A stretch of 20,000 bases of DNA from an uncultured virus (IMG/VR IMGVR_UViG_3300020020_000024) (taxonomy: Duplodnaviria; Heunggongvirae; Uroviricota; Caudoviricetes), in IMG/VR virus record IMGVR_UViG_3300020020_000024. One strand, 5' to 3'. Both the position numbers and the translations under genes were made by a program. Shown here piece after piece: positions 1-17,161 of this stretch. Within the stretch, counting starts at the first letter, position 1. Each line of letters opens with the position of its first letter. The notes below the pieces were generated by a model. It was not told the DNA's origin, made no database searches, and saw only the letters and a list, made by a program, of their open reading frames with translations.

Positions 1-308
1 TCACGGAAAGTTTTTAATATTTCAGTAAGAATTGGGAAATCATTGGTGTAATGACAAATAATTTCCTTCATTAGATTTTCCTGGTCTTTAAAAAGTTCTG
101 TTATTCCTTTGTGGTCAGTAATCTTACTCCATAGTGATTCCAATTCGGCTGCTACTACTTTTTCAAGTTCTGGAATCAATAAATTGATTCTGTTTTTGAG
201 ATCGTGACGGTAATACTTCGTTTCTTTTAATTCGTCCATTAGAGAAAGCAGTCCTTCACATTGCATTATTGCATGTAAGTAAAGATGACTATGATTAGGA
301 ATATTCAT
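1..308 (-). CDS. hypothetical protein, runs off the window start
   Basis: Manual translation: ATG at 308-306, open frame MNIPNHSHLYLHAIMQCEGLLSLMDELKETKYYRHDLKNRINLL... to base 1; packed 4 nt after the stop of the 313..603 ORF. Confidence 0.75.
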   Translation of the reverse strand, partial: MNIPNHSHLYLHAIMQCEGLLSLMDELKETKYYRHDLKNRINLLIPELEKVVAAELESLWSKITDHKGITELFKDQENLMKEIICHYTNDFPILTEILKTFR

Positions 309-312
309 AATA

Positions 313-603
313 CTACTTTTGTTCGTCGTCTTTTTCAAATACAAGTTTTGCAAACTCAAAACCGGCGCATGGCCTACCAGCATCTTTGAATTGCGGGGTA
401 TGGCAATTGAACCCACCCTCAGCCATCAGCATGTATGCAGCATTATCGGCAGCCATGAAATAAGTCAGGTTGTGTTCCTGCTCCCATTTGAAGGCGCAGG
501 TATCGCACATCTTCCCGCATTCACCAAGTTTACCTTGTTGCTTAGCTTTCTCAGCCCCCGCTTTCGCCAGTTGTGATATTGATTCTGCGTAACTGACTAT
601 CAT
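313..603 (-). CDS. small Cys-rich phage protein (DUF6283-like, possibly metal-binding)
   Basis: CDTCAF...FNCH...PCAGF pattern; start overlaps the stop of the upstream MTase. Confidence 0.7.
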   Translation of the reverse strand: MIVSYAESISQLAKAGAEKAKQQGKLGECGKMCDTCAFKWEQEHNLTYFMAADNAAYMLMAEGGFNCHTPQFKDAGRPCAGFEFAKLVFEKDDEQK

Positions 604-1367
604 TATTTATCAATTGTAATAAGACAAGAAGCGACATTTGCGCCACTCTCTTTAAATGTATCCTGCGGTAAATCATCAATATTTGAATTGAGATTGTTTA
701 GCCACCTTTCAAACTCTTTTTCTTTTTTCGTACTCACAATACGAAAATGATTTGAACACACTGTAACGATCCGGCCACCTGGAGCGCAGACTTCATACAT
801 CATCCTGATATGATCAATATCCTGGTTCTTTGCAAATGGAGGATTGGCGATAATAATATCGAATAATAAGTTTTTTTGTTTATACTTTTTGATATCCAAA
901 AAGTTATTGCAGATAAGTCTGCCGTCGTCACTAATATTTTCAAGTAGTTCGTGTTTGGTTGTATCAAGCTCACAGTACCAGTAAAGATTTTTACAACCGT
1001 TCCGGTGAGCAGCATGGATTAAAGCACCTTCTCCGGCATGTGGTTCAAGAAATGTGACAGGAGGCTTTTTTAATCTTGCACTTGGAAAAGCCAAACCAAT
1101 CATGTGATCAGATAAACCCTTTGGGGTATAAAATGATTGAAACTCTTTTTGCAAGTTTCTTTTTACTCCACCCGCTACCTGGGCCACAAGATCAGTAGGA
1201 TCATGAGGAAACAAAAACCCTTGTTCTTTTTTATTCCAAGCACCACCTATTTTTTGTAATGTAGTTGATACTTGAAGATATAGCGGTCTTTCTAATTGAA
1301 CATCTGGCAGCTTAACCAGTTTTCCTTTAATTGTACATTGCTTTAATACTTCTTCTTTTGTTTCCAT
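603..1367 (-). CDS. SAM-dependent amino-methyltransferase, probably DNA N6-adenine
   Basis: FYTP motif X, LEPHAGEGAL SAM-binding motif I, IIANPPF catalytic motif IV, FKESGANV C-terminal motif. Confidence 0.85.
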   Translation of the reverse strand: METKEEVLKQCTIKGKLVKLPDVQLERPLYLQVSTTLQKIGGAWNKKEQGFLFPHDPTDLVAQVAGGVKRNLQKEFQSFYTPKGLSDHMIGLAFPSARLKKPPVTFLEPHAGEGALIHAAHRNGCKNLYWYCELDTTKHELLENISDDGRLICNNFLDIKKYKQKNLLFDIIIANPPFAKNQDIDHIRMMYEVCAPGGRIVTVCSNHFRIVSTKKEKEFERWLNNLNSNIDDLPQDTFKESGANVASCLITIDK

Positions 1368-1375
1368 GATTGTTT

Positions 1376-1720
1376 TTATTTTATCTTTTTAACGATTGCG
1401 TAATTTTTTGATTGGTCTAGCTTCATAATATTCATTCCAAGTAAAAAAGCCTCACACCAGGAAATATTTGATTTATCCATGAATGTGATTATTAGCTGGT
1501 TACTGACTATTTCTTTTGTACTAAATAAATAAACGTAATGCTCAATAGGATTCAACAGTATTCGACGATCCAAGCCGGTTGATCTCAGAGCGTATTCAAG
1601 ATGGCCATACCTTCTTGTAAGATTCTTATTTGTGATAATATCAAAACGGTAGGCGTCGTCCTCAACTTCAATCGCAAAAATGCTTTTTAGGATTTCTTTA
1701 ATATTAACTGTCTTTGCCAT
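1376..1720 (-). CDS. hypothetical protein
   Basis: 114-aa ORF in a tightly packed minus-strand run, overlapping the upstream stop. Confidence 0.65.
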   Translation of the reverse strand: MAKTVNIKEILKSIFAIEVEDDAYRFDIITNKNLTRRYGHLEYALRSTGLDRRILLNPIEHYVYLFSTKEIVSNQLIITFMDKSNISWCEAFLLGMNIMKLDQSKNYAIVKKIK

Positions 1721-2372
1721 TTAGCTTTAGTTTTTTTTCAGTTATATCTTGACATACTAACTCAAATGCAGTAAACACTTTTCTCATTACAGCAAATGAA
1801 TGTTGCTTCCCGTCTGATAGTTCATCAATTGCTTTTGTCCAAATCTCTCTTGGTTTCATCCAAAGCTGACTCATTTTTTCCTCTGTATCAACCTTACCGT
1901 TAAAAGCTCCATAACTAAAAAATGTATCGGTCTTGAAAAAGCAGAACCTTGCGTTTGATTTTATTTCTTCTTGTAAAATAAATTGCTTTATTACAGGTAT
2001 GGTCATTGATATTAAATTATCAATTGCTGGTTTTGCTTTAAGAATTTGAGCAGCCAGCTTGCCAGCAAGTATGAACTTTTCAAGTGTGTTAGGATCGTCG
2101 TTTTCCAGGAATCTTGCCTTATAGTGACATTCCTTTTCTTCTTCATTTGTAATAGTAACAAATATATAAAGCAAATTGTTGGCCATGCAGTACCACCCAT
2201 CTTTTGCACGACGAACATATGTAAAACATAGCGGTTCACAGTTTTCACTTACCTCTGAAAGATGAATAATTTTGTTGATCATTGCTGCATGATTCTTAAA
2301 ATCAAGACTACTGCATTCTTCTTCCGTCGCAAATGGTTTTACCAGTTCGATCATTTCTTCTGTTATAATCAT
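1704..2372 (-). CDS. hypothetical protein
   Basis: 222-aa ORF with ATG start and A-rich leader. Confidence 0.75.
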   Translation of the reverse strand: MIITEEMIELVKPFATEEECSSLDFKNHAAMINKIIHLSEVSENCEPLCFTYVRRAKDGWYCMANNLLYIFVTITNEEEKECHYKARFLENDDPNTLEKFILAGKLAAQILKAKPAIDNLISMTIPVIKQFILQEEIKSNARFCFFKTDTFFSYGAFNGKVDTEEKMSQLWMKPREIWTKAIDELSDGKQHSFAVMRKVFTAFELVCQDITEKKLKLNGKDS

Positions 2373-2398
2373 CTTTCTTTTTTAATTTTTTAAAATTT

Positions 2399-2424
2399 AG
2401 CCAGGGCATTGATATGCCCCGGCA
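2399..2424. terminator. GC-rich hairpin, possible terminator
   Basis: gccagggcat-tgat-atgccccggc imperfect inverted repeat in an intergenic gap. Confidence 0.4.
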
Positions 2425-2457
2425 TCTATTCTATTTTTACAAAAAAACCCTCTTTAG

Positions 2458-2730
2458 TCAATTCCATTTTACACCATCTTCCCATTCTATTTCCATTGTT
2501 CCTTGTGGCCATCGATGCCACATATCAAGTATGCAGGTAAGGTCAGACAGATCAGATAGCTTATTATATTGCTTATAATCCTTTGCATCGTCGGCTATTT
2601 TCATTTGCTCTTTTACTTTTTTATGAAGCATAGTAAAATTTAGTTTGCCAACCTGCTGCCTCAAAATTGTTAGCCGATGTGTCTCTGACATCTTAGCTAG
2701 GCTGCGTACCAGTTTATCAGTAGCTTTCAT
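2458..2730 (-). CDS. hypothetical protein
   Basis: 90-aa ORF, ATG start overlapping the upstream ORF end. Confidence 0.65.
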   Translation of the reverse strand: MKATDKLVRSLAKMSETHRLTILRQQVGKLNFTMLHKKVKEQMKIADDAKDYKQYNKLSDLSDLTCILDMWHRWPQGTMEIEWEDGVKWN

Positions 2731-2959
2731 TTCCTATTGCGTCAATCTTTTTATCCAAACGATCAATTTTTTCATTCAATTTTATAAGTCCATTTTCATC
2801 GTTTATAAATCGCAATTGCAACATATACCAATTAGCCATAAGCCAATATGCGAACAGTTTTATTGATTTTATAAAAACGATACCTACTCCCATAGTGATA
2901 GAATAAACATTAATACAGTAATGAAAACAATACCGATTGCGAATCCGAATAGAAACCAC
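2717..2959 (-). CDS. hypothetical small protein, possibly membrane-associated; start uncertain
   Basis: Hydrophobic middle and coiled-coil-like C-terminus (LIKLNEKIDRLDKKIDAI); fits operon packing. Confidence 0.4.
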   Translation of the reverse strand: MVSIRIRNRYCFHYCINVYSITMGVGIVFIKSIKLFAYWLMANWYMLQLRFINDENGLIKLNEKIDRLDKKIDAIGNESY

Positions 2960-2965
2960 GCCGTT

Positions 2966-3205
2966 TTAACTTGCTTCATATTTTACTTTTTTAGCAGGTT
3001 GCGTTCTTGCTTGCTTAATAAATTCATTTATCTTTCCAGATTCAATTAACAAATAAGTAAAGAATGCGTAATAGTATCTGTGCTTACTATTACTATGAGA
3101 TGCCATATCATCGAACAGATCACGCTTAAATTTAGCATCTATGTCATAAACCAATCCAGACTCTTTAATTATTGTTGAGTTCTGCTTCATATGCTTTTCT
3201 TGCAT
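2966..3205 (-). CDS. hypothetical protein (start possibly ATG 3190)
   Basis: 79-aa ORF overlapping the upstream gene end. Confidence 0.6.
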   Translation of the reverse strand: MQEKHMKQNSTIIKESGLVYDIDAKFKRDLFDDMASHSNSKHRYYYAFFTYLLIESGKINEFIKQARTQPAKKVKYEAS

Positions 3206-3641
3206 TTTTAATTTCTACTGCATAATCCCTTTGCACCTGCTCCCAAAATTCAGGTCTCACTCTTACATCATAGCCAGCGAATACCTTAGTTCTTTGAACA
3301 TTCTCCATTTGTCTAGCATTACGCTTCTTTTTTTCCAGGTCTAGAAGTTTCTCTAATGCCTCTGATCCTGGAACTTTAATCATTTTATTGAAATTGCTCT
3401 GTGGCAGAGTGGCGATGTAATCAAATTTGAATTTCATAAAATCAAACCTTGCATCCTTGCCGTATATTTCCAGGCATATCGCTAATGCAAGTTGAGCAGC
3501 ACCGCTACCAGGGTAACCCCAATTGAACTCAGATGACATCTTTGATCGTTCAAGACTTTTTTTAATAGCAAGTTTTTTACCATTCAGATAAACATACTTC
3601 TTGAAATAATTTCCTCTGAGTTGAATTGTGATCAGTTTCAT
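3165..3641 (-). CDS. DUF6166-like phage protein
   Basis: FNWGYPGSGAAQLALAI...FKFDYIATLP motif recalled as typical of this family. Confidence 0.7.
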   Translation of the reverse strand: MKLITIQLRGNYFKKYVYLNGKKLAIKKSLERSKMSSEFNWGYPGSGAAQLALAICLEIYGKDARFDFMKFKFDYIATLPQSNFNKMIKVPGSEALEKLLDLEKKKRNARQMENVQRTKVFAGYDVRVRPEFWEQVQRDYAVEIKNARKAYEAELNNN

Positions 3642-3659
3642 ACGTTAATTGATTCTTTA

Positions 3660-3826
3660 AAAAGGGGCATCCCGCATCCGGGTCAGCCCCACCATTAAAC
3701 CTCAACCTAAGCCTTATGCAAAGTCATTTAAAGAGAGCCTACCGATTAAGGAACGGCTCTCTCATTAACCGTCCATGTTAATATATTGAAGAAAGACCCT
3801 ACCGCCCATGCGGATCGGGCCTTCCT
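3660..3826 (-). ncRNA. three tandem related hairpins with spacers; candidate small-RNA array (first hairpin probably also terminates 3827..4645)
   Basis: Hairpins at 3664-3690, 3732-3762 and 3795-3821, each an outer stem plus internal loop plus inner stem, followed by U-rich sequence on the minus strand. Confidence 0.45.
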
Positions 3827-4645
3827 TTACAACCTATTTTGTTGCGCCATCTTTTCTGCTGACATGGTTTTAGAATAAAAATATCCGTTGTATTGCTGCT
3901 TAGCCCACGCAGCAAGATCATCTGATATGGTAGGCATTTCCAAAATAACAGCAACCATTGATTCTAATACACTGGCCCGATCGGAAACCTGCGAAGCAAA
4001 CTCCTGGACTTCTTCTAAGTTTTTAAGGTTTGCATCAGGGAAGTGAATATTATTGATTTTACCATTTGTGAATATGTGAATACCACAATTATTCTTTAGC
4101 CAGAAACTAATTTCTCCGTTATGAATAAGAATATAGTTGACTGATTTTTTTAAAACTGGATTTGAAAGGTAGTGTCTGCCAACCTTATTGGTATTATCTA
4201 TCCGTTCTTGCTGAATGGTTGTGATGTGTTGTTCTCTTGCATGGTAATGCTTTACCCCCAGGTCTATCAGAGCCTTTAATTTATCAGCATCAATTTCTTT
4301 GTTAATATTAATCCTAATTACATAATTCTTTGTGACGTCAACTGTCATTGTTCTCATTGCAATAAAACGATTCTTCCTGATAGTGGTCTTTCTTGTATAA
4401 GCATTTGCTCCAGCATAAGAAGCGTTATCAAAGTTTATGGTAAATACAGCATCTTTTATTTTTATTTCGTTGGTATGCAGCTTGGATTCAATTTCAAAGT
4501 CAAGTGACTCTAAGAATGAAATGAATTTGCTACCGTAAATATTATCGTCTGCACGGGTTTCAAACTCCCTGTTTTTGTCATTGATCTCAAACATTGTAGT
4601 ATGCTTCTTTGTCATCTTTCTTGTTTCTAAAAAATCAGTAGTCAT
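3827..4645 (-). CDS. hypothetical protein
   Basis: 272-aa ORF with ATG start, followed by a hairpin. Confidence 0.8.
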   Translation of the reverse strand: MTTDFLETRKMTKKHTTMFEINDKNREFETRADDNIYGSKFISFLESLDFEIESKLHTNEIKIKDAVFTINFDNASYAGANAYTRKTTIRKNRFIAMRTMTVDVTKNYVIRININKEIDADKLKALIDLGVKHYHAREQHITTIQQERIDNTNKVGRHYLSNPVLKKSVNYILIHNGEISFWLKNNCGIHIFTNGKINNIHFPDANLKNLEEVQEFASQVSDRASVLESMVAVILEMPTISDDLAAWAKQQYNGYFYSKTMSAEKMAQQNRL

Positions 4646-4647
4646 GA

Positions 4648-4878
4648 TTACTCCGGTATTGGTTTTGTGAAAAATGAAACAATCTTAGCTTCCCTTTTGA
4701 CAATAGTAACTTTGTTCTTTACAAAAGGTTTCATGTGCGTCAGAAGGTCTGATTCGTTTTCGGTATATGCAGCACCCGCTACCACACACAAGCAACCTGC
4801 TAGTGCCATCTCGTTTGATTTCTCACAATCCCTTACGAGTCTATTTATTTTATCAATTAAAATATCTCTTGCATTCAT
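4648..4878 (-). CDS. hypothetical protein (start revised to ATG 4878)
   Basis: MNARDILIDK...; this start removes the overlap with 4889..5782. Confidence 0.65.
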   Translation of the reverse strand: MNARDILIDKINRLVRDCEKSNEMALAGCLCVVAGAAYTENESDLLTHMKPFVKNKVTIVKREAKIVSFFTKPIPE

Positions 4879-4888
4879 ATAAGTAGCT

Positions 4889-5782
4889 TTATAAGAATGA
4901 ACTGATTTGATCCCTGAGATTAAGCAACTGTTCTCTTGTGAATCTGCCGATAACTTCAATATCTTTCACAACTTCAAAGTCTGGCTCTTGCCCTGTATAA
5001 CTTTCTTCTGAGGTAACATAATATTTCGTCTCTGCTTCATCGTATCCCGCATTAATAGCCTGATTGGTTTCATCTGCAACAGGTGTGCCAACGGTTTTGT
5101 ATTTCACCAATACATATAATTCGCTTGTCTCAATGTTAGACATAGTGCCTGATGCGATAATCTTATTTACTTTATCATTCCTGTCGTTGACATGCTTTAC
5201 AACATCATCAATCATACCATCATCTATTAATTGCTTCATGGTATTGTGCCATACGCCTTTTTGCGCATAACCAAATACTTTATCATCTTTTAGAACTGAA
5301 AAGGTTCTGATATTATTCCTCATTGAATATATCTCTGCATCATGTACTGCCCTTCCAAGTTCTTGTACCGTCTTTTGTTGTTTTAATCCCCTGATTATTA
5401 TTATCTCCTTCTGTCGTGGATAAGATAATTCCTCTTGTACATAGAACTTGTTTTCTACGGCCATATCCCATGCCATATTCCAAAGGTTAATATCAAGAGC
5501 ATCCTGTCTGCTTTTTTCCGTATGTGCATATTCGTAATCGCTTGGCATTGTTGGTCTGCGTCCAACTACGTTTATAAACGCTTCGTCCATTGTCATATTA
5601 GCATCAAGATATTCATGTGAGGCACAAGAATCTTTTTCATTGTCATTTTTAGTAATGACTTCATTTATCTGCTTCCTACTAAGATCACGACGAAGTATTC
5701 TTGAAAATTCTTTAGCAAGTGTTATTTGTAGTTGTAAGTCGCCGATAACCGGAGAGGTTGATTTATTGTTTGTTGTTGTCAT
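4889..5782 (-). CDS. hypothetical phage protein
   Basis: 297-aa ORF; CASHEYLDANMTMDEAF motif; leader taacctttacaacATG. Confidence 0.8.
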   Translation of the reverse strand: MTTTNNKSTSPVIGDLQLQITLAKEFSRILRRDLSRKQINEVITKNDNEKDSCASHEYLDANMTMDEAFINVVGRRPTMPSDYEYAHTEKSRQDALDINLWNMAWDMAVENKFYVQEELSYPRQKEIIIIRGLKQQKTVQELGRAVHDAEIYSMRNNIRTFSVLKDDKVFGYAQKGVWHNTMKQLIDDGMIDDVVKHVNDRNDKVNKIIASGTMSNIETSELYVLVKYKTVGTPVADETNQAINAGYDEAETKYYVTSEESYTGQEPDFEVVKDIEVIGRFTREQLLNLRDQISSFL

Positions 5783-5802
5783 GTTGTAAAGGTTATATTG
5801 AA

Positions 5803-6102
5803 TTAAGAAATTCTTTTTACATCAGCACCCATCCCCGGTTCATGTCTCTCACCAACTTCTAGTTTGACTATGGCTTGCCAATCAGGGTCAGACATAAATT
5901 CAAAAATGTCTTTAACATCAACTGCGTCCATGTTTACTACAAGTATTTCTATAAGGGAACTTGGCTCGTTTGAATCAACTGAATAAGTTCTTGAAGTAAA
6001 TTCGTCAAGTGTGAGATTATACTTTTCACAGAATTTCTTCTTTGTGTCATCGCTGAGTTTGGCGATCAGGTTCGCAACGTGATTTTCGTGGTTGTATGTC
6101 AT
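5803..6102 (-). CDS. hypothetical acidic protein
   Basis: 99-aa ORF directly downstream of a TAnnTTTG promoter. Confidence 0.75.
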   Translation of the reverse strand: MTYNHENHVANLIAKLSDDTKKKFCEKYNLTLDEFTSRTYSVDSNEPSSLIEILVVNMDAVDVKDIFEFMSDPDWQAIVKLEVGERHEPGMGADVKRIS

Positions 6103-6132
6103 ACGCTGTAAAGGTTAAAGCAATACAATAAT

Positions 6133-6164
6133 CAAATATATATATTTATATATAATAATGCCAA
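6133..6164 (-). promoter_or_regulatory. Bacteroidota sigma70-type promoter
   Basis: Minus strand TTGG (6164-6161), 20 nt, TATATTTG (6140-6133); consensus is TTTG-N19-21-TAnnTTTG. Confidence 0.65.
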
Positions 6165-6196
6165 CAGTCACGAAAAAATATTTCGTGACTGTTTTT
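6163..6196. terminator. intrinsic terminator-like hairpin after 6207..6587
   Basis: Perfect 13-bp stem aacagtcacgaaa (6163-6175) / tttcgtgactgtt (6181-6193). Confidence 0.65.
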
Positions 6197-6206
6197 GGCT
6201 TTATTG

Positions 6207-6587
6207 TTAGAATCCGTAGGGGTTTGTTGTTCTGACCTTTAATGTTGAATGAAAAGGAGCAATAATGGTAGCCCTGATCCACATATTAGGTACAAAGAGA
6301 GCGGGTGTGCCATTTTCATCAGAATGGCCAACTAAGAAAATGTTATATGCAAATGGTTCAAGAGTAAATGTTTCTGTAATACCAACTGACAATAATTCAA
6401 TTTCGATAGTGATCGTTTGGTCAGTATAATTCGTAAGAGCCACGCTATAACCAGCGTAATCGCTGTAAGAGTTATAATCTATGAATTCCATACGGAACGC
6501 ACGATTTGAAGAAGCGTTTTTTTTCTGAGCATTAACGTTGCTGGTGAATGCTGCAAGTACTAAAAGTACGATAGTAAGTTTTTTCAT
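6207..6587 (-). CDS. secreted protein with Sec signal peptide (start revised to ATG 6587)
   Basis: MKKLTIVLLVLAAFTSNVNA-Q: signal peptide with Gln at +1, common in Bacteroidota; own promoter and terminator. Confidence 0.8.
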   Translation of the reverse strand: MKKLTIVLLVLAAFTSNVNAQKKNASSNRAFRMEFIDYNSYSDYAGYSVALTNYTDQTITIEIELLSVGITETFTLEPFAYNIFLVGHSDENGTPALFVPNMWIRATIIAPFHSTLKVRTTNPYGF

Positions 6588-6617
6588 TGTTGTAAAGTTT
6601 AGAGTTAAAAGGATTAT

Positions 6618-6637
6618 CAAATGTATATATATACATT
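6618..6637 (-). promoter_or_regulatory. -7 promoter element overlapped by an 18-bp palindrome
   Basis: TACATTTG on the minus strand (6625-6618); aatgtatatatatacatt palindrome at 6620-6637. Confidence 0.55.
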
Positions 6638-6729
6638 AGCTAATACTATCTTTTTTGCAAAAATATTTTTACAACACGCATTTGGCTATACAACTTCGTT
6701 ATATAACAGGAGATTAGAGGGATTAGTAA

Positions 6730-7434
6730 TTATACGTTAGTGCGGATCGCAGCAAGGATAGCCCCATCCTGGCCTACGAATTTCTTTATATAGGCTCTTG
6801 TTTCTTCAACCTTTAATTTGCTTACGATTGTAGCGGTATCTGCATTTTTGAGACCAGCAAGAATAATTTCTTTAGTGTAGTTTCCGTATCCACGATTATA
6901 TAAAATAATAACGTGATCGAGTTTGTAATCACCGAAATCCTTTTTGGTTTTTGCCATCAGTTGGGCAAGGTGCATTGTGCCCATCCATATACTGAATTCA
7001 GGGATCAGTAGTGATTCATATATTTTCTTTTTCCAGGACAAAGTAAGTAGCGGAACAAAGCCACCAATCTTTAAAAAGTCGGGAAGGTATTTTTGAATAA
7101 TACTTGCTTCTGCCGGTTTCAGACTTGCTGCCTGGTCTTTTATTGTTTGGTATGCAGTAGCAACTTGCATTTGCATGAGACCATAAGAACATCCATAATT
7201 TGATTTGTCTAGTGTGGAGCAGCCATAGCTTATAGCTTTGGGATCTAGTGCAGTATTTTCAATGATCATGAAACCAACAACAAAGTTTTTGTCAATACCA
7301 ACTGTATCAGCTGCTGCCCTGATTACTGACCCATAGTTTGTTTTGATTTTATTTGCTGCTACAACGGCATCCCTGCTGAAAGTATCTGAATACTTTTCGT
7401 TGATCATTGGGAATTGAATATAATTAGTTGCCAT
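6730..7434 (-). CDS. lytic transglycosylase (SLT/lysozyme-like fold); endolysin or virion muralytic enzyme
   Basis: Catalytic Glu motif MIIEN..DPKAIS, YGLMQM, YNRGYG and ETRAYIKK motifs. Confidence 0.85.
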   Translation of the reverse strand: MATNYIQFPMINEKYSDTFSRDAVVAANKIKTNYGSVIRAAADTVGIDKNFVVGFMIIENTALDPKAISYGCSTLDKSNYGCSYGLMQMQVATAYQTIKDQAASLKPAEASIIQKYLPDFLKIGGFVPLLTLSWKKKIYESLLIPEFSIWMGTMHLAQLMAKTKKDFGDYKLDHVIILYNRGYGNYTKEIILAGLKNADTATIVSKLKVEETRAYIKKFVGQDGAILAAIRTNV

Positions 7435-7436
7435 GA

Positions 7437-7577
7437 TTATTCTATTCCTTTTGTGTTTCTTAATTCTGCTCTATCTTCTTCTGAAAGTTTGTTTGGTCTG
7501 CGGATAAAGAAGTACCATCCAGCAACGCCGCCTAAAACCAAGACGGAACTAATGATGATCGCTACCTTAATTTTCAT
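7437..7577 (-). CDS. small single-pass membrane protein (46 aa, start ATG 7577)
   Basis: MKIKVAIIISSVLVLGGVAGWYFFIRRP followed by a charged tail; 2 nt upstream of the SLT gene start. Confidence 0.7.
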   Translation of the reverse strand: MKIKVAIIISSVLVLGGVAGWYFFIRRPNKLSEEDRAELRNTKGIE

Positions 7578-7686
7578 ATAAAATGTGTGGATGCGGCTAA
7601 AAATAAGTAAAAAAAATTGAAGCCAGCAACTGTTATTTGCCAGAGTTGGTGGCAAATAATAATTCAATGTTTAATCCGTCAATCTT

Positions 7687-8158
7687 TATATTAGTTCCTT
7701 GATTTGGGTAAAGGAAGTAATGCTTCTTTTAAGGAACAACAAACGGATGTCTTTGCAGTAGGCATCCGTTCTCCTTTTAAAAATCAAAAACAATTGTATC
7801 TTTATTGCGCTAACTTTTTTTAAAGTTGGCTTTTTCTGTTATAATATCATAATAATATTTTTAACTCTCTCATTGGACATACCTGTTGTTATAAGCAGCC
7901 TCTTTATTAGGGGCTGTTTCTTTTTTATTATATTTACCTCGTAGTTTTTCATAGGATATTGAACATAACCAGGATCACCTGCCATTTTTATGGTGGGTGA
8001 TTTTTTATAACTACAACTTTTTAAAAATATTTTTTACAAGATTTGGGTAATTTCTATATAACTTAGGATTGTAATTCTTCCTCAAACTTGCCATAGTTTA
8101 GATTAATTACATCGTCCTGAAATTATAAACCCCCGATTTCCATCGAGGGTTTTGTTTT
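7687..8158 (+). ncRNA. array of short promoter-like/spacer/terminator-hairpin units; candidate small RNAs
   Basis: Five U-tailed hairpins (7742-7770, 7809-7830, 7894-7918, 7974-8001, 8127-8152), each preceded by a degenerate TAnnTTTG-like element (7687, 7797, 7856, 7929, 8059); no ORF of 60 aa or more in about 500 bp. Confidence 0.5.
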
Positions 8159-8179
8159 ATATACCGTCCAAGTATAATA

Positions 8180-8704
8180 TTATTTCACCTGATAAATAAC
8201 AGCGTTCTTGAAAGTGTAAGTGTTTGATGCCTGACCTGAGATGAATGTAAGTTCTATTCTTTGTTGTGTGGTAGTGTTGACTGCGACTGTTGCAGCAGTT
8301 GGACTGATGATCGGCGCTATCGCTTGTTTATCTCCAAATAAAGAACCAATAGCAGTTCCACCTGCCCCAATTGATCTTATGGTAATCAAACCACGAAAGA
8401 ACGAAGGCACCGCAGTAGTTCCTACCGATCCGGTAAGTGACGCCGCAATGTTTCCTGTAAGAGTTGTATTGCCGATCCTGATCCTGATAGTCGGGGTTGC
8501 TGCGTTCGTTCCCGCTTGTATGCAGTATGCTTCAATTGCAAATGTTGAACCTACTGCAAGTTCACCCACAGCAGCTATATAAGAAACAACAACTGTTTCG
8601 GTATTAGCAATAGCAGCATCAGCATTAAGAATGCCTCTGCCTCCAACCTCTCCAAAGGTTGCAATTCTATTTGATCCTGTTCCTTTCGGGCCTAAAAAAT
8701 CCAT
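8180..8704 (-). CDS. probable virion structural/fibre-associated protein
   Basis: Ala/Gly/Thr-rich beta-strand-like composition; coupled to the fibre gene. Confidence 0.7.
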   Translation of the reverse strand: MDFLGPKGTGSNRIATFGEVGGRGILNADAAIANTETVVVSYIAAVGELAVGSTFAIEAYCIQAGTNAATPTIRIRIGNTTLTGNIAASLTGSVGTTAVPSFFRGLITIRSIGAGGTAIGSLFGDKQAIAPIISPTAATVAVNTTTQQRIELTFISGQASNTYTFKNAVIYQVK

Positions 8705-8705
8705 A

Positions 8706-9782
8706 TTATCCGATTATAATTACTAGGTAAGTATTTGATGCCGGAGCGACAGCAAATGTAATCGTAACCGCATTGACGCTATTACGAACCACATCAGCGT
8801 AAACCTCTGCATGTGTAGAAGCATCTCTTATAGATACAGCGACATCTCTTGTGTTTAAGTTATGCGTACAAACTATTGCAGTAGCTACGCCGTCTCCAAT
8901 AGAAAATGTTTTCTTCTGTGTAAAATTTGCAAGGCCAGCAGGAGTCACGGCCCTGGTTGCATCTGATTTCGCTTCTACCTCAGCTTGTGTTGCAAGTTCA
9001 ACTATCCCTTGTGTCGTTAATGTTGCGGTGTCAACATTTGCTTGAACTACTACCCAATTAGCACCAACACCAGCATGAGTGCCAGCAGCAGATGAATCCG
9101 TAATACAATACAATGTATCACCAGCAGTAACATCAACACCTGATGCGCCACCGATTTTACCAGCTACTGTTACCTTGTAAACATGACCAGCATTAGCAGC
9201 AGGGTAATTAGGGTTTGCGCTACAATCAATACCGCCTTTGAATACTAGCGCATCGTTTGCATTGAGTAAGGCATCGATGTATGCCTTAACCGCTTTTTGT
9301 GTTGCGAATCTTGCATCGCTGTTTGCAGTCAATGCTACATCAGTATCGGCAACGTTAGCTGCCAGCATAGCAATAGTCAAATTACTGATCGTGTTATTTG
9401 AAGCATTGATCGTTTTATTTGTCAATGGTTCGGCCCCTGCTGGTGTTATGTAATCTGTACCAGCAACAGCAGCAGCAACAATACCAGCAGCAATCTTTAC
9501 AATACCTGCGGTTGTATATGCGGAGATTGTTTTATTAGCACCACCAGCAACTATTAATTCACCGGCACCACCAGCGTTTACGGCTCTTGTAACTGCGTTA
9601 ACGACGCCAGCACCTAAATAGATCCATGTAGTATCCTGGTAGCAACCAAACTGTTTTAGTGTAGTATCATAATAAACCAAGCCTTCTATTGGAGAACCTG
9701 GTGCAGCAGGAAGATTTTGTATAACTGCGTTTAGTAATTCTGTTCTTGTTAAATCGATTCCATTTAAAAACGATGCTGACAT
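8706..9782 (-). CDS. phage fibre-like structural protein
   Basis: ATLTTQGIVELATQAEV...AVTPAGL tail-fibre repeat; FKGGIDCSANPNYPAA and HNLNTRDV modules; Ala/Gly/Thr-rich. Confidence 0.8.
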   Translation of the reverse strand: MSASFLNGIDLTRTELLNAVIQNLPAAPGSPIEGLVYYDTTLKQFGCYQDTTWIYLGAGVVNAVTRAVNAGGAGELIVAGGANKTISAYTTAGIVKIAAGIVAAAVAGTDYITPAGAEPLTNKTINASNNTISNLTIAMLAANVADTDVALTANSDARFATQKAVKAYIDALLNANDALVFKGGIDCSANPNYPAANAGHVYKVTVAGKIGGASGVDVTAGDTLYCITDSSAAGTHAGVGANWVVVQANVDTATLTTQGIVELATQAEVEAKSDATRAVTPAGLANFTQKKTFSIGDGVATAIVCTHNLNTRDVAVSIRDASTHAEVYADVVRNSVNAVTITFAVAPASNTYLVIIIG

Positions 9783-9809
9783 AATATTGGATTTTAATAG
9801 TAAAAAAAA

Positions 9810-10262
9810 TTAACCTAAATATACTTTACCGCTAAATGCGGCACGAAATATAACTGTGATAGAGTTTGGATTAACGTATTCAACATCACCATAAACCTTT
9901 CTGCCGGTACTATCAACAATTGTTACACTAGGAAAATAATTTAAGTTGTGATTAATATTCCAGGTTGTTGCTGGCACTCCTTGTGTATGAGTATAAGTGC
10001 CACCACCCGAACTGCCTGGATCACCTTTTAAATCAATTAATGCAACAAGATCATTCCAGTTTACATCGCCAATATATCTCCATTGAATATGAGTTGATGA
10101 TTTTTGAAGATCTACTTCTCTGCCATCTGATCCTGGAACTGAATTTCGATTTCCGATATTTCTTAACCAATCAAAGGCAAATAAATCAGTCCAGTCATCA
10201 CTTTCACCACCACTCCATTGGATATGAGTTGGCGTGATTCTTAATTTTATATCCTGTGGCAT
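9810..10262 (-). CDS. phage structural/fibre-associated protein
   Basis: Two THIQW repeats, LKGDPG collagen-like stub, C-terminal YTHTQ..WNINHNL..PSV module. Confidence 0.75.
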   Translation of the reverse strand: MPQDIKLRITPTHIQWSGGESDDWTDLFAFDWLRNIGNRNSVPGSDGREVDLQKSSTHIQWRYIGDVNWNDLVALIDLKGDPGSSGGGTYTHTQGVPATTWNINHNLNYFPSVTIVDSTGRKVYGDVEYVNPNSITVIFRAAFSGKVYLG

Positions 10263-10781: not shown

Positions 10782-13301
10782 ATGATTAAGATACTGCACG
10801 GTAAAATGGAAATCAGACTAAAAGAATTTCCAGATAATTATTTTGATAGTGTTGTTACAGATTCTCCGTATGGTCTCGGTGAAGAACCAAATGTAATTGA
10901 AGTATTAAGAGACTGGCTCGATCATGGTTATCACGAAGTAAAAAATAACGGTGGATTCATGAATGCTGAGTGGGATAAATTTGTTCCGCAACCAAACGCA
11001 TGGAAAGAAGTTTACAGAGTGCTTAAACCAGGTGGCCACTTAGTTACGTTCGCAGGCACACGGACATATGATTGGATGGTTATGAGTTTGAGGATCGCAG
11101 GATTTGAAATAAGAGATCAGTTGGATTGGTTGTATGGATGTTTAAGTAATGATACGGAAGTGCTTACTGAAAAAGGATGGATTTCTTATAAAAATCTTAA
11201 CACAATTGACTATGATAAGATAATGTGTTATGATATTTTGGACGACAGTATCCATTTTGAAAGACCACAAAAATGGAATGAATACCAAATCAAAGATACC
11301 TGTTACCGAATACAATCTGATAGTACAGACCAAATCGTCACCAGAAATCATCGTTGCCTTATTGAACGAAAAGGAAAGCTATTATTTGAGTTTGCTGAGA
11401 AAGCCGCACGGGAACAACAAGCGAATATACCCATTCTGGAAAGCATGTCGTGTTTGCGGGAAACCTTTTATGACTCATACCAAAGAACAAGCAAGCAGAA
11501 ACAAATGTTGTTCAAGGAAATGCCAGACAGCAATTTTAATAAACCGGAGAAAACGTGCAGTAAAATATTTAATAGAGAAAAAATGCGCTGTTTGTGGGGA
11601 AAGATACAAAGCAAGACAAGACAGGGAATCAAAATATTGTTCTGCAACATGCAATGGAAAAGTACAAGCATTGGGCTTAATAAAACATTCTCACAAGGGT
11701 CATTTGAGTTGGACAAAAGAAACAAAGTTGAAATTCAAGAAAAGAATGAAGGGGGCTTCAAATCCATCTTGGAAAGGGGGCGTAACATATCGAAACAGGA
11801 AAGGTGTTTACCGTCAATGGAAGATAAAATATATAAAGTGTCCAGTAGAATACGCATCAATGAGCAGGAAAGACGGGTATATAACGGAGTACAGATTGAA
11901 AGTGGCGCAACAACTACGACGAGTATTAACAAGAATAGAGGTTGTTCATCATATAGATCACAATCCAGAGAACAACGATATAGCGAATCTGATGTTATTC
12001 AAAAACAATGCAGATCACAAGAAATACGAAGCGGGGTACGATATAAAACCACTCTGGCAACCATCACTCCATTTGAATATAGCGGCATAGTTTTTTGTCC
12101 TACTGTATCTACTGGTGCTTTTGTAGCAAGAAGAAATGGAATGATTTTTATAACCGGAAATTCAGGATTTCCAAAATCACTCAACGTAAGTAAAGCTATT
12201 GATGCAAAATTCGGTGCTGAAAGAGAAGTGATCGGTAAAAGAAAACATCCTACTTTAAAAAATCCGGAAAAAATAATGGAAAGTAAAAGTGCTGTTCATA
12301 CGCTTGCTGATACTTGGCAACGTGAATGGCCTATTACTGCAGCCGCCACAGATGAAGCAAAGAAATGGCAGGGATGGGGAACGGCATTGAAGCCCGGGCA
12401 CGAACCGATATGTCTTGCAAGAAAACCATTATCAGAAAAAAACATTGCTGAAAATATTTTGAAATGGGGAACAGGCGCTATCAATATTGATGAAAGTAGA
12501 ATCGGATTTGCAGATGATGAAGATAAGGATAGTGCAGTATGGGGCAGAGGCACTGATATTGGTGGTGGAAATTTTGTTGGTTCTACTAAGTCATCAGGCA
12601 AAACAAATGTAGAACCTAATAAAGCAGGGCGATGGCCGGCAAATGTGATTCTTAGTCATCATCAAAATTGTGTTGATGAAATTCAAGAATGGAAATGCGT
12701 TGATGATTGTCCGATTAAAATTCTTAATGATCAAGCACCATCTACTGGCGCTGTTTCAATGATCAAAAAAGGCAGCTACGGTGTGAGCCAAAACACATAC
12801 AACGATTACGCATACAAAGGTGATGATGGAAGAACATTCAGGGGTGATATTACCGGGGCCAGCAGATTCTTTTATTGTGCGAAGGCAGATACACAGGAAA
12901 GGAATATGGGGCTTGATAAAGACAAGTATAAAAAAATAATCAATCATGGCATTCATGATACTTGTGAAATATGCGGAGGAAGAATATTCCAGGCCCAGGG
13001 TTTTCCTGGAACTTGTATTTGTGATGAACCAACAAGGCAAGGGAAAATAGTTAAAGGGAATTTTCATCCAACTGTAAAGCCTGTTGCCCTCATGCAATGG
13101 TTAGTAAATTTAATAACTCCTATCAACGGAAAAGTTCTCGATCCGTTTAATGGAACTGGTTCAACCGGGATCGCTTGTAAGATTGATGATTTTGAATATA
13201 TAGGGATTGAACAAGAAAAAGTTTTCTGTGATATCAGCGTGGATAGAATAAATGGCTGGATATATCAAAAAAAGAATTTAGTAGGTGATATGTTTGATTA
13301 A
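10782..13301 (+). CDS. beta-class N4C/N6A DNA methyltransferase precursor containing an intein
   Basis: VVTDSPYGL (motif IV variant), RVLKPGGH, WLYG|SGFPKS restored after intein removal, GWGTALKP, HPTVKP, VLDPFNGTGSTG (motif I). Confidence 0.92.
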   Translation: MIKILHGKMEIRLKEFPDNYFDSVVTDSPYGLGEEPNVIEVLRDWLDHGYHEVKNNGGFMNAEWDKFVPQPNAWKEVYRVLKPGGHLVTFAGTRTYDWMVMSLRIAGFEIRDQLDWLYGCLSNDTEVLTEKGWISYKNLNTIDYDKIMCYDILDDSIHFERPQKWNEYQIKDTCYRIQSDSTDQIVTRNHRCLIERKGKLLFEFAEKAAREQQANIPILESMSCLRETFYDSYQRTSKQKQMLFKEMPDSNFNKPEKTCSKIFNREKMRCLWGKIQSKTRQGIKILFCNMQWKSTSIGLNKTFSQGSFELDKRNKVEIQEKNEGGFKSILERGRNISKQERCLPSMEDKIYKVSSRIRINEQERRVYNGVQIESGATTTTSINKNRGCSSYRSQSREQRYSESDVIQKQCRSQEIRSGVRYKTTLATITPFEYSGIVFCPTVSTGAFVARRNGMIFITGNSGFPKSLNVSKAIDAKFGAEREVIGKRKHPTLKNPEKIMESKSAVHTLADTWQREWPITAAATDEAKKWQGWGTALKPGHEPICLARKPLSEKNIAENILKWGTGAINIDESRIGFADDEDKDSAVWGRGTDIGGGNFVGSTKSSGKTNVEPNKAGRWPANVILSHHQNCVDEIQEWKCVDDCPIKILNDQAPSTGAVSMIKKGSYGVSQNTYNDYAYKGDDGRTFRGDITGASRFFYCAKADTQERNMGLDKDKYKKIINHGIHDTCEICGGRIFQAQGFPGTCICDEPTRQGKIVKGNFHPTVKPVALMQWLVNLITPINGKVLDPFNGTGSTGIACKIDDFEYIGIEQEKVFCDISVDRINGWIYQKKNLVGDMFD
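11139..12161 (+). mobile_element. intein (residues Cys120-Asn460, 341 aa)
   Basis: Block A CLSNDTEVLTEKGW, block B IVTRNHR (TxxH), block F YSGIVFCPTV, block G FITGN followed by Ser+1; interrupts the conserved WLYGSGFPKS motif. Confidence 0.92.
11230..12090 (+). CDS. HNH homing endonuclease in the +1 frame inside the intein (true start uncertain)
   Basis: Two CxxC...CSxxC zinc ribbons, KGASNPSWKGG NUMOD-like motif, DGYITEYRL and EVVHHIDHNPENNDIANLMLF...H HNH core. Confidence 0.85.
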   Translation: MIFWTTVSILKDHKNGMNTKSKIPVTEYNLIVQTKSSPEIIVALLNEKESYYLSLLRKPHGNNKRIYPFWKACRVCGKPFMTHTKEQASRNKCCSRKCQTAILINRRKRAVKYLIEKKCAVCGERYKARQDRESKYCSATCNGKVQALGLIKHSHKGHLSWTKETKLKFKKRMKGASNPSWKGGVTYRNRKGVYRQWKIKYIKCPVEYASMSRKDGYITEYRLKVAQQLRRVLTRIEVVHHIDHNPENNDIANLMLFKNNADHKKYEAGYDIKPLWQPSLHLNIAA

Positions 13302-13517: not shown

Positions 13518-13712
13518 ATGACACTATTAGCCATTCCGGTAATTATTAATTTCTTGATAGCAGTTCTTGTGATCTGCATTATCGTTTACGCTATAAAACT
13601 TCTTGCTGATTGGTTGCAGTTTCCACAGCCTTTGAAAATATTACTCTATCTTATTTTTTTCTTACTGGCTATTTATTATTTATGGGAACACTACCTAACA
13701 ACATGGTTATAA
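13518..13712 (+). CDS. small two-TM membrane protein (holin-like topology possible)
   Basis: Two hydrophobic helices separated by LQFPQP; leader acttaaacttATG. Confidence 0.75.
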   Translation: MTLLAIPVIINFLIAVLVICIIVYAIKLLADWLQFPQPLKILLYLIFFLLAIYYLWEHYLTTWL

Positions 13713-13721
13713 AAAATTACA

Positions 13722-13729
13722 TATTTTTG
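13722..13729 (+). promoter_or_regulatory. -7 element upstream of the tmRNA
   Basis: TATTTTTG matches TAnnTTTG, 10 nt before the tmRNA 5' end. Confidence 0.55.
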
Positions 13730-13739
13730 AATTAAATAC

Positions 13740-14049
13740 GGGGATGGATTGATTTGATTGCTATTAGTAGTTCTTTGATCTCAGGCGTAGGTGGCAACCG
13801 ACTAATAAATATGCAAAAAAACAAAACGACAATAACACAGTGTATTCGTTGTTTGGTTCTAACGGGATCGGTGATTCTGCAAGAACCGGGGAAATGAAAG
13901 CAGCCGCTTAATTAGCGGCCCTGGCAAACGAAGGCTTTCAAAATTTCGGAATTGTTTTAAGGTTAATTTTCGACTGTCCAGAAGTAAAAGCCTGTATAAA
14001 GATTGAAGGGGAATGTAGTAAGACACGGGAGCGATACTCGTCATCTCCA
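13740..14049 (+). ncRNA. ssrA: transfer-messenger RNA (tmRNA)
   Basis: Acceptor stem GGGGATG/CATCTCC+A with G3-U70; T-arm ACGGG-AGCGATA-CTCGT; helix 2 pairings (ttgcta/tagtaa, caggc/gcctg); tag frame ...DNNTVYSLFGSNGIGDSARTGEMKAAA* with TAA 13909-13911 in the loop of the gccgct/agcggc hairpin; CCA not encoded. Confidence 0.92.
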
Positions 14050-14176
14050 CTAAGCTACAAGCCAAGTGTAATGTTCGTTAACAGGATCATACCCATATAG
14101 GCTCATTACAGCAACTTGTAGCTTGCTCCATTAAATGGTCAACTACTTTGTTATCAAAGAATAGGTTGTCATTTAT

Positions 14177-14212
14177 AAGCCTCTGGATCAGCACCCAGAG
14201 GCTTTATTTTTC
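14177..14212 (+). terminator. intrinsic terminator of the tmRNA transcript
   Basis: aagcctctgg/ccagaggctt 10-bp stem followed by a T-tract. Confidence 0.75.
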
Positions 14213-14230: not shown

Positions 14231-14329
14231 TTTGGAGATATGACTTTTTATCCTACTTTAGCAGTCCTCTTTGGTGGAAGAGGATGGTGGCTTGTAAAAG
14301 GGTGCTGGTTCGGCACCCTTCTTTTTTTT
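14231..14329 (+). ncRNA. candidate small RNA of about 65 nt with its own promoter and terminator
   Basis: TTTG (14231), 19 nt, TACTTTAG (14254); hairpin tcctctt/aagagga; terminator aagggtgctg/cggcaccctt plus T-tract, which could also end the convergent HNH gene. Confidence 0.45.
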
Positions 14330-14732
14330 ATCGCTGTGAAGCGATTTTTATTTTTTTATAACCAGTTATGTAATGCTGCTTCTCAAACTCCTTATTAGTT
14401 AACGGAACTTTTATTGAATATTGAATTACCTTTTTTACATTCTCAATCATTACTTGAAGTATTGATGCGGGATAGTTTTTTATTCCATTCTTTCTTCTGA
14501 GTTGTGTTTGCAACCATACAAGAAATTGAACAGGCGTTCTATCATCCTTTGTCCTATTACATATATCACAGCAGCTGCCTAAAATATTTTGAGTTGATCG
14601 CAAGCCGTCTTTTGATTTTGGATGCATATGATCTTTTGTTCGTATAAGAGGCTTAATTAATTCCTTATATGGTGTTCCATATTTTCTTTCGCAGTAGTAG
14701 CAATGATCATTGCAGCATTGTGGTTTTTGCAT
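14328..14732 (-). CDS. free-standing HNH endonuclease
   Basis: CYYC...TKDHMHPKSKDG....N....CCDICNRTK, a His-Me finger with zinc ligands. Confidence 0.85.
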   Translation of the reverse strand: MQKPQCCNDHCYYCERKYGTPYKELIKPLIRTKDHMHPKSKDGLRSTQNILGSCCDICNRTKDDRTPVQFLVWLQTQLRRKNGIKNYPASILQVMIENVKKVIQYSIKVPLTNKEFEKQHYITGYKKIKIASQR

Positions 14733-16246: not shown

Positions 16247-17161
16247 TTAGCTAAATGCTTCACAAGTTTCGACACATCCGTCATTAGTATCTAAATATTC
16301 ATCCCACATACCACCGGCAATATTTACAGGATAAATTATTTTACTTTCATCCTGAGCCTCTACAAACGGGAACTTTGATTCTTCGATTATATCATCAACT
16401 GATCTCTGATCCCTGTAAAATCGGATCGGCAGTTTTGTTTCATCTTTCCTGTGTTGCCTGGATTCGGGGATGTAGTTGCCGTATTTGATTTCCATTTCTC
16501 TCCACCAGTTAGTCAATTTTGGTTCATTCTTGCTAAGTGTCATTAATTTCCTTATTGATTTTTTCCAACACAGGTCGCAGTTACCTTCATAAGATTTCAA
16601 TTCAAGATCAAAAGATTGTTTACTCCAAAATATATTCACATCATTACGGCTAACCTTTTTCAATGTAACAAATGGATAAAAAAGATTTTCTTTTTTTAGA
16701 GTCTCCCAATTAATCCGGGCCGGTTCATCAATTCTATATCCAACCGCAGTAATGTAATCCTGGCCTACCCATGCAATGGATCTAGCGTAAGCCCTGATTG
16801 CTTCCTTTTTTAATTGACGTGAGCAATGTGGATTAGGTTTGTTCGGTATCCCATACTTACTAATCATATCTTCAAACACCTGTCCATCTCTGTTTGCTGT
16901 CTCAAATGAAACTACATTTGCGGTAACACCTTCTCCGAATTTTTGATTTGTAACAGCTTCAATCCAAACAGTATTAAAACCAAAATTCAAATCACAGTTT
17001 CTGACGAATTCTAAGGTTGGTTCTTTCTCTTTTCCGGTATTAGAAAAGACAATTATTATTTCATAGTTATGGCGATCGGGCCACTCATTTAATAACCACC
17101 AAGTCATGTATGCAGAGGTTCTGCCGCCAGAGAAAGATATTAGAAGTTTTTTCTTTTTCAC
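16247..17161 (-). CDS. PAPS-reductase-like PP-loop protein
   Basis: ISFSGGRTSAYM PP-loop, FSNTGKE, CSRQLK, GYRIDE, GNCDLCWKK, C-terminal GCVETCE. Confidence 0.88.
   Translation of the reverse strand: MKKKKLLISFSGGRTSAYMTWWLLNEWPDRHNYEIIIVFSNTGKEKEPTLEFVRNCDLNFGFNTVWIEAVTNQKFGEGVTANVVSFETANRDGQVFEDMISKYGIPNKPNPHCSRQLKKEAIRAYARSIAWVGQDYITAVGYRIDEPARINWETLKKENLFYPFVTLKKVSRNDVNIFWSKQSFDLELKSYEGNCDLCWKKSIRKLMTLSKNEPKLTNWWREMEIKYGNYIPESRQHRKDETKLPIRFYRDQRSVDDIIEESKFPFVEAQDESKIIYPVNIAGGMWDEYLDTNDGCVETCEAFS

Follow-up and report, generated by a model that had tools for sequence, protein, structure and literature searches.

Tandem fail-safe intrinsic terminators, such as rrnB T1-T2, stand at the end of strongly transcribed units, and the lambda oop RNA exemplifies a phage antisense RNA near late genes. 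To our knowledge, almost nothing is known of non-coding RNAs (ncRNAs) in the phages of Bacteroidota-like soil bacteria, or of how these phages organize their transcription. Here, we describe a gene-free gap in the uncultured Caudoviricetes virus of IMG/VR record IMGVR_UViG_3300020020_000024, in which five hairpins followed by T-tracts stand in a row on the plus strand, between genes that all lie on the minus strand. The whole stretch of DNA that was analyzed, 20,000 nucleotides long, is referred to as the window, and all positions are those of the window.

Several described systems come close to this arrangement. In Bacteroides, intergenic small RNAs (sRNAs) are defined by the pairing of a start site with an intrinsic terminator; the pertinent sections of PMC7366714 give 49 “high-confidence” intergenic sRNAs for Bacteroides thetaiotaomicron, GibS included, and TAnnTTTG as the -7 consensus of sigma-A. 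In T4-type phages, PeSL (promoter-early stem-loop) elements have been shown to possess promoter and terminator activity and to mediate gene gain and loss, their copies consisting of ~100 bp of conserved promoter-stem-loop sequence and flanking ORFans, according to the passages of PMC2839356 that describe them. Finally, STnc6030 of the Salmonella prophage BTP1 is listed as antisense to the tailspike mRNA in the relevant part of a review (PMC12197685).

The gap shares features with each of these. Like the B. thetaiotaomicron sRNAs, so far as they are characterized in the sections cited, its units are non-coding, intergenic, and end in a hairpin and U-tract, within a genome that has Bacteroidota-like signals; unlike them, it lacks the canonical TAnnTTTG and carries five terminators in 411 bp, on a phage, opposing both flanking operons. 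Homology to GibS itself is absent (24.1 bits, where the gathering score is 115). As with rrnB-type tandem terminators, and with a trio of terminators that follows a transfer-messenger RNA (tmRNA) candidate in the same phage, same-strand stops stand in a row before oppositely oriented genes. However, no plus-strand gene or known strong plus-strand promoter precedes the stack in the gap, and there are five stops rather than two or three, separated by promoter-sized, A/T-rich spacers. With the PeSL elements of T4-type phages, the gap shares composite terminator and promoter modules clustered in a variable phage region (PMC2839356, PMC4122927); as portrayed in the excerpts concerned, PeSLs have sigma-70-type boxes, form a sequence family, and flank ORFans, whereas the gap has no open reading frames (ORFs) and runs opposite to its neighbors. 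Membership in a PeSL-type family was excluded, given that the units have no common sequence and that no credible ORF lies between the hairpins. Like STnc6030, in the account given by the review, and like lambda oop, the candidate RNAs described below would be short phage RNAs that oppose late or structural genes and act by base-pairing; those two are single RNAs overlapping a coding gene, whereas RNAs from the gap would arise in wholly non-coding DNA and be antisense to read-through only. What sets the gap apart from the nearest known kinds is thus a combination: five stops in 411 bp, directed against both operons, with no sequence in common. We found no paper on tandem terminators in bacteriophage intergenic regions in open-access text, which is not proof of absence.

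A row of terminator-like hairpins in a gene-free gap

The gap measures 602 bp (7578-8179) if the small gene on its left starts at the ATG at 7577; alternatively, in the ORF listing, the frame of that gene extends upstream to a TTG at 7667. It is A/T-rich (GC content of 0.315 across 7601-8000), lies within a run of genes from 3 to 10262 that are all on the minus strand, and is flanked by a tail-fiber-like/virion block and a cassette of membrane protein and SLT-domain lysin. A preliminary description of this region, made from its letters and ORFs, had reported about 500 bp of non-coding DNA between minus-strand genes; the non-coding character and the gene orientation were borne out, but the gap is larger. 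All six frames are broken, and the gap is non-coding. Two frames that start with TTG, 7704-7823 (39 aa) and 7873-7944 (23 aa, its hydrophobic character due to T-richness), were considered as genes and rejected, as both run through terminators.

In a constrained-fold terminator search, a hairpin was scored if its stem had 7 or more pairs and no more than 3 unpaired bases, its loop did not exceed 9 nt, its folding free energy (dG) was -8 or lower, and 5 or more of the 8 nt behind the stem were T. Five such sites (H1-H5; Table 1) lie on the plus strand inside 411 bp, with 9-13 pairs, loops of 4-7 nt, and a dG of -8.8 to -18.0 kcal/mol. Across the 491 nt from 7680 to 8170, 200 dinucleotide shuffles yielded a mean of 0.16 such plus-strand sites, with a maximum of 1. 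The strict plus-strand matches in the entire 20-kb window number 15, one third of which are thereby concentrated in 2% of the sequence. Further, a built-in consensus terminator scan reports three of the five hairpins. Among 49 other loci (409,874 nt), none has four or more same-strand sites per 450 nt, the maximum being three, in four loci; the 49 come from phage and metagenome contigs, with several duplicates and many that are G+C-rich, and they provide a loose control. The hairpin row is real and unusual, far beyond chance.

The preliminary description had anticipated that CRISPR and repeat finders would miss such units, and neither repeat finders nor RNA family models report a match. Specifically, Rfam gave no match in the gap at the gathering threshold (all 24 at an E value of 10 or less fall far below it), a tRNA search of the gap found none, and no tandem or CRISPR-like direct repeats are present in it, apart from a 12-nt A/T row with a score of 33. 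A CRISPR or ToxI-type array of repeat RNAs was rejected, because direct repeats of one unit are lacking.

Strand bias of the hairpins

A T-tract follows the stem on the plus strand in all five hairpins, and on the minus strand in H5 only and, more weakly, in H1. Together with H0, a sixth hairpin that lacks a T-tract, H1-H4 contain 10 G-U pairs when folded as plus-strand RNA and none when folded as minus-strand RNA. Six of these ten positions are internal and turn into A-C mismatches on the minus strand, which costs each hairpin 5-8 kcal/mol. Among the minus-strand forms, that of H1 is weaker (-10 to -11.3) and has the tail TTGTTCCT (TTGTTCC), and that of H4 reaches -8.8 to -11.7, with two internal mismatches. 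Calibrated on terminators of the window whose direction is set by the upstream gene or by the tmRNA, the G-U criterion picked the right strand in five of six informative cases. Such features show H0-H4, as far as sequence can tell, to be built for plus-strand RNA. We regard it as firm, at the level of sequence, that selection maintains plus-strand RNA hairpins with U-tracts in the gap, and therefore that RNA polymerase would cross it in the plus direction and be stopped repeatedly.

H5 has a second role. Its minus-strand form has 11 pairs, is perfect, and is the more stable one (-14.6 to -15.5). Because of this better minus-strand fold and its position, beginning 28 nt past the stop of the tail-block gene at 8180-8704, H5 is the terminator of that gene itself and can serve both directions. 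The five U-tailed plus-strand hairpins of the preliminary description, said to face opposite to the flanking genes, are all present with plus-strand T-tracts, but four rather than five of them simply oppose their neighbors.

The same asymmetries bear on whether the hairpins act in a structured minus-strand leader, that is, in a long 5′ leader of the lysis-cassette mRNA or in read-through from the tail genes, where pausing, processing, or antitermination could affect lysis timing. Minus-strand transcription plausibly crosses the gap, both H5 and H1 have minus-strand terminator forms, a minus-strand terminator-like hairpin with a run of eight T lies just before the candidate lysis-cassette box, and a minus-strand box is present at 8029. 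Yet H0, H2, H3, and H4 each lose 5-8 kcal/mol and gain A-C mismatches on that strand, and their U-tracts group on the wrong side, all of which makes a minus-strand leader quite improbable.

A DNA-level element (a replication origin, packaging site, or attachment site), with hairpins acting in single-stranded DNA, would suit a gap that is A/T-rich, gene-free, and hairpin-rich, and in which two copies of a 24-nt repeat bracket H1-H4. The consistent placement of U-tracts after the stems is, however, a feature of transcription, the repeat is at chance level (see below), iterons and tandem repeats are absent, and PHROG and Pfam scans identified no adjoining integrase, terminase, or replication gene. 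We consider such an element very improbable.

Table 1. Features of the gap, its borders, and the terminators behind the tmRNA candidate (energies in kcal/mol)
Feature	Position	Strand	Remarks
SLT-domain lysin	6730-7434	-	Pfam SLT, E 1.4e-06, 28.2 bits; directly downstream of the 46-aa gene
Small single-pass membrane protein gene	7437-7577	-	46 aa from ATG 7577; left gap border
-7-like box	7598-7605	-	TATTTTTA(G); ~20 nt upstream of ATG 7577; candidate lysis-cassette promoter, putative and non-canonical
Terminator-like hairpin with T8 run	7609-7653	-	hairpin 7653-7622, -9.0; T8 run 7616-7609; just upstream of lysis-cassette box
Hx	7632-7660		11-bp palindrome; overlaps the minus-strand hairpin 7609-7653
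Octamer 1	7687-7694	+	TATATTAG; degenerate -7-like
24-nt direct repeat, copy 1	7688-7711	+	11-mer GATTTGGGTAA at 7701-7711
H0	7709-7731	+	10 pairs, 2 G-U; no T-tract; stable on plus only (-7.3 vs -2.2)
H1	7742-7779 (stem 7742-7770)	+	11 pairs; -14.9; tail CTCCTTTTA
Octamer 2	7797-7804	+	TATCTTTA; 4 nt before H2
H2	7809-7840 (stem 7809-7830)	+ only	9 pairs, A/U-rich; -8.8; tail TTTTTCTGTT
Octamer 3	7856-7863	+	TATTTTTA
H3	7893-7928 (stem 7893-7919)	+ only	11 pairs, 2 G-U; -15.3; tail CTTTTTTAT
Octamer 4	7929-7936	+	TATATTTA; abuts H3 tail
H4	7973-8010 (stem 7973-8002)	+	13 pairs, 3-4 G-U; -18.0; tail TTTTTATAA
24-nt direct repeat, copy 2	8027-8050	+	11-mer at 8040-8050
Box	8028-8035	+	TATTTTTT; inside repeat copy 2
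Box	starts 8029	-	TATTTTTA; inside repeat copy 2
Octamer 5	8059-8066	+	TAACTTAG
H4b	8063-8118	no preference	long imperfect hairpin; -13.2 on plus, -12.9 on minus
H5	8127-8160 (stem 8127-8152)	both	bidirectional terminator; plus form -10.2, one A-C mismatch, tail TGTTTTAT
174-aa protein gene	8180-8704	-	right gap border; last gene of the virion/tail-fiber-like block
Terminators after tmRNA	14177-14204, 14298-14320, 14330-14345	+	where plus-strand transcription meets the minus-strand HNH gene block

Proposed short transcripts against the late genes

Our preferred reading, to which we assign a probability of roughly 0.4, is that the gap is a plus-strand stop zone in which several short non-coding transcripts that oppose the flanking late genes come to an end. 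Initiation by host RNA polymerase would take place in the A/T-rich spacers, at -7-like boxes that are weak and non-canonical, and the next hairpin would stop the polymerase. The predicted RNAs are U1, of ~78 nt (7701-7778), U3, of ~58 nt, U4, of ~67 nt, and U5, of 90-120 nt, while H2 would most likely be just a back-up stop. In U1, a free 5′ part (GAUUUGGG) would be followed by H0 and then by the terminator H1, so that it appears to have the classic layout of an sRNA: a free 5′ end, an internal, plus-specific hairpin, and a terminator. Each predicted RNA folds better than its own shuffles, with z values of -3.0 to -5.3, and the same phage has a stand-alone ncRNA gene with promoter and terminators on the plus strand, namely the tmRNA, which counts in favor of this reading. 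The most plausible mode of action would be cis-antisense, because the RNAs would be perfectly complementary to any minus-strand read-through running from the tail operon into the lysis cassette; they would pair with such RNA and destabilize it when it reaches the lysis genes at the wrong time. In addition, the row of stops would shield the tail operon from plus-strand transcription. If the units are expressed, the gap would rank among the densest sRNA loci described in phage, and scans for architecture (orphan terminator rows, strand-specific G-U pairs) would find RNA genes that homology tools miss.

The starts of these transcripts would lie at boxes in the spacers. As the preliminary description had it, an octamer stands before each of the five hairpins (Table 1), but the octamers are degenerate, and their joint chance probability of ~0.005-0.02 is post hoc. 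In every spacer, a TA..TT[AT][AG] box precedes the hairpin that follows; with the spacers shuffled singly, the chances of this are 0.29, 0.15, 0.33, 0.50, and 0.72, with a product of ~0.005, and the three short spacers have a joint chance of 0.007 of containing TA..TTT[AG]. Boxes ending in A may be usable as promoters, because such boxes precede two real gene starts by about 24-27 nt, those of the 46-aa membrane protein (7605, minus strand) and of a 64-aa gene at 13518 (13494, plus strand). A sigma-70-type promoter scan of the window was uninformative (69 found, 73 expected).

The two copies of the 24-nt direct repeat are 79% identical and constitute the best internal repeat of the gap. Both contain the 11-mer that had been noted at 7701 and 8040, with a TA-box 4-6 nt upstream, which would make the 11-mer the shared 5′ end of two RNAs. 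Allowing at most 2 mismatches, the 11-mer occurs 6 times in the window against 8.65 expected, and a 10-mer common to U5 and the tmRNA-distal spacer is likewise at chance level.

A number of results weigh against such transcripts. First, the canonical box TANNTTTG (TAnnTTTG) has no site on either strand across 7680-8170, and the five well-placed promoters of the window, including that of the tmRNA, are all canonical: the distance from box to start is 35-45 nt for the genes that begin at 6102, 6620, and 10782 and 23 nt for that at 18480, and the fifth box directly precedes the tmRNA-like gene. Independent transcription of the units, as first described, is weakly supported, as it depends on non-canonical -7-like boxes without the final G; the box variants in the gap end in A, T, or AG. 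The gap-wide excess of boxes is modest: the pattern TANNTTWR has 7 sites against 3.31 +/- 1.70 expected, with 0.036 of shuffles reaching 7, and was drawn from the data, so that the test is post hoc. In a comparison with shuffled sequence, which the preliminary description had proposed for such units, the hairpins lay far above chance and the octamers modestly so (7 against 3.3). The per-spacer test is suggestive and still post hoc. Second, the geometry is uneven. The hairpin starts are 67-154 nt apart, and box 2 is so close to H2 that unit 2 would be a bare hairpin of ~30 nt. Third, an alignment of six units has 7 invariant columns, 5 of them in the anchoring box, so that the units share no sequence; an exact repeat of at least 11 nt, such as the 11-mer, arises in 13.4% of 1000 gap shuffles and is not beyond chance; no site complementary to the 11-mer exists in the window; and five candidate 5′ parts, scanned for duplexes with the 31 translation-start regions, performed no better than shuffled queries (fractions 0.16-0.89). 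Fourth, the folding asymmetry of the gap as a whole is only marginal, since it favors the plus strand by 12.7 kcal/mol against 5.3 +/- 5.1 when shuffled, a value reached by 0.068 of 133 shuffles.

A stronger proposal is that of a battery, in which four or five autonomous RNA genes of ~30-120 nt, each with a non-canonical -7 box and its own terminator, would oppose the late genes; we think this less likely than not. The RNA units as first described fared unevenly: U1, U3, U4, and U5 are retained as predictions, but unit 2 amounts to a ~30-nt terminator, and the hairpin of unit 5 belongs to the tail gene. The expectation of conserved architecture with variable sequence was confirmed, as hairpin and T-tract are common to the units, which align without shared sequence. 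The battery, if real, would be a compact sRNA cluster with a common architecture and no common sequence, one that repeat and family searches miss; it might time lysis or act on the host.

A possible barrier against antisense transcription

No plus-strand gene lies within 7.5 kb upstream of H1-H4, and their plus-strand units are hypothetical. A tentative alternative, nearly as likely as the short transcripts, is that the row is purely a fail-safe barrier, at which plus-strand (antisense) transcription from outside is stopped by redundant terminators before it collides with, or silences, the tail operon. Such transcription could come from a canonical plus-strand box, TATTTTTGAAT, at 7088 inside the lysin gene, or from pervasive initiation on A/T-rich DNA, and at most one discrete RNA (U1, or an RNA of 0.5-0.7 kb antisense to the lysis cassette) would then be functional in its own right. 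The phage itself sets a precedent, which likewise speaks against the short transcripts, in the three stacked plus-strand terminators behind its tmRNA, the last two of which are 10 nt apart and leave no room for a promoter. Further, the tmRNA promoter has 11 bases in common with the box at 7088-7095, just one weak strict plus-strand hairpin (7403-7437, -9.3) lies between this box and H1, and the gap is without canonical promoters. Back-up stops also make sense because the tail of H1 is poor (CTCCTTTT).

Several aspects of the gap exceed what a barrier needs or fit it less well. The tmRNA is followed by three stops, fewer than the five over 410 bp here, the spacers of 30-117 nt each contain a -7-like box, and U1 folds like a self-contained sRNA. 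Two plus-strand TAnnTTTG sites in the 850-nt lysis cassette are, moreover, unremarkable, because the window shows no enrichment of TAnnTTTG (24 sites against 27.4 expected). If the barrier reading is correct, such phages would commit considerable resources to halting antisense transcription at the borders where late operons encounter opposing transcription, which would be useful for the annotation of phage operons and for Bacteroidota insulator parts.

Independently transcribed accessory genes classically reside in the space between tail-fiber and lysis modules. The terminators and boxes could therefore be left over from small plus-strand morons that were deleted between the tail and lysis modules, making the gap a relic or an empty cassette site. 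Its layout of a terminator and then a promoter-like box does resemble the composite PeSL motifs, as those are depicted in part of PMC2839356. Nevertheless, the units share no sequence, unlike PeSLs, and no ORF remnants were seen. The hairpins are also intact, with imperfections that are all G-U on the plus strand, pointing to continuing selection on RNA and not to decay. We consider a relic rather improbable.

Genomic neighborhood and additional observations

PHROG and Pfam scans took in 20 ORFs of the window. They gave no family match for the 46-aa membrane protein, which from its position may be holin-like. Because the SLT lysin directly follows it, the two genes most likely form a lysis cassette. 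On the other side of the gap, the genes at 8706-9782 and 9810-10262 match PHROG tail-fiber and head-decoration families; the other matches in the window are to DNA methyltransferases, an HNH nuclease, and two PAPS-reductase-like proteins. Expression signals are Bacteroidota-like, with A-rich upstream regions and a Shine-Dalgarno-like motif at just 2 of 31 gene starts.

A search for sequencing runs gave six of DNA and none of RNA; those that contain DNA of the phage are labeled as soil and freshwater metagenomes. Pieces of 6500-9500 are found again, with 0 differences, in 2018 and 2025 runs (soil, freshwater), and short gap-spanning read pieces (e.g., 7626-7779, 7792-7942, and 7996-8238) are identical to the window, with 0 other letters, while one of the four runs compared gave no pieces. 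Hence, the phage sequence appears to be very stable between samples, at thin coverage.

Relatives of the neighborhood are distant. A blastn search of the gap region against 50,697 phage records gave no match, and the SLT lysin has no tblastn relative in viral contigs, genome contigs, or phage records. Relatives of the 174-aa protein are 35-58% identical and are C-terminal parts of longer proteins. For this protein and its 358-aa neighbor, searches returned 8 + 13 + 27 loci that share domains only (32-69% identity), mostly in high-GC phages; in these loci, the hairpin row is absent after the homolog, which is part of a longer protein, and ORFs follow directly. The 297-aa protein returned one locus.

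The tmRNA candidate (13740-14052, plus strand) reaches 42.5 bits with Rfam RF00023, whose gathering score is 47 (E ~1e-15), with the full model aligned, and its acceptor stem and T-arm have a high posterior probability in the alignment. It was missed by ARAGORN and by Rfam at the gathering threshold. A canonical box, TATTTTTG, precedes it at 13722-13729, and its 3′ end reads ...CUCCACUA, with the CCA not encoded. Across 7088-7098 on the plus strand, antisense within the SLT-lysin gene, the TATTTTTGAAT box is identical in 11 bases to the tmRNA promoter box; it may drive an antisense RNA across the lysis cassette, but it could also be due to chance.

Elsewhere on the minus strand, two genes, with starts at 5782 and 6102, have the motif TAACCTTTACA in common in their leaders, immediately ahead of the ATG (5783-5800 and 6103-6125). 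An 839-aa N6/N4 DNA methyltransferase (10782-13301, plus strand) has a split family match, to residues 6-119 and 460-824. The insert of ~340 aa between them (about residues 120-460) has no Pfam match even at an E value of 1; it starts with CLSNDTEV and ends with ITGN|S, and looks intein-like by eye. Finally, two adjacent PAPS-reductase-like paralogs (16247-17161 and 17178-18050, minus strand) match phrog_424, with E values of 5e-44 and 1e-43, and their best phage tblastn matches are just 37-43% identical. The pair lies near two DNA methyltransferases, with which it may form a DNA-modification module.

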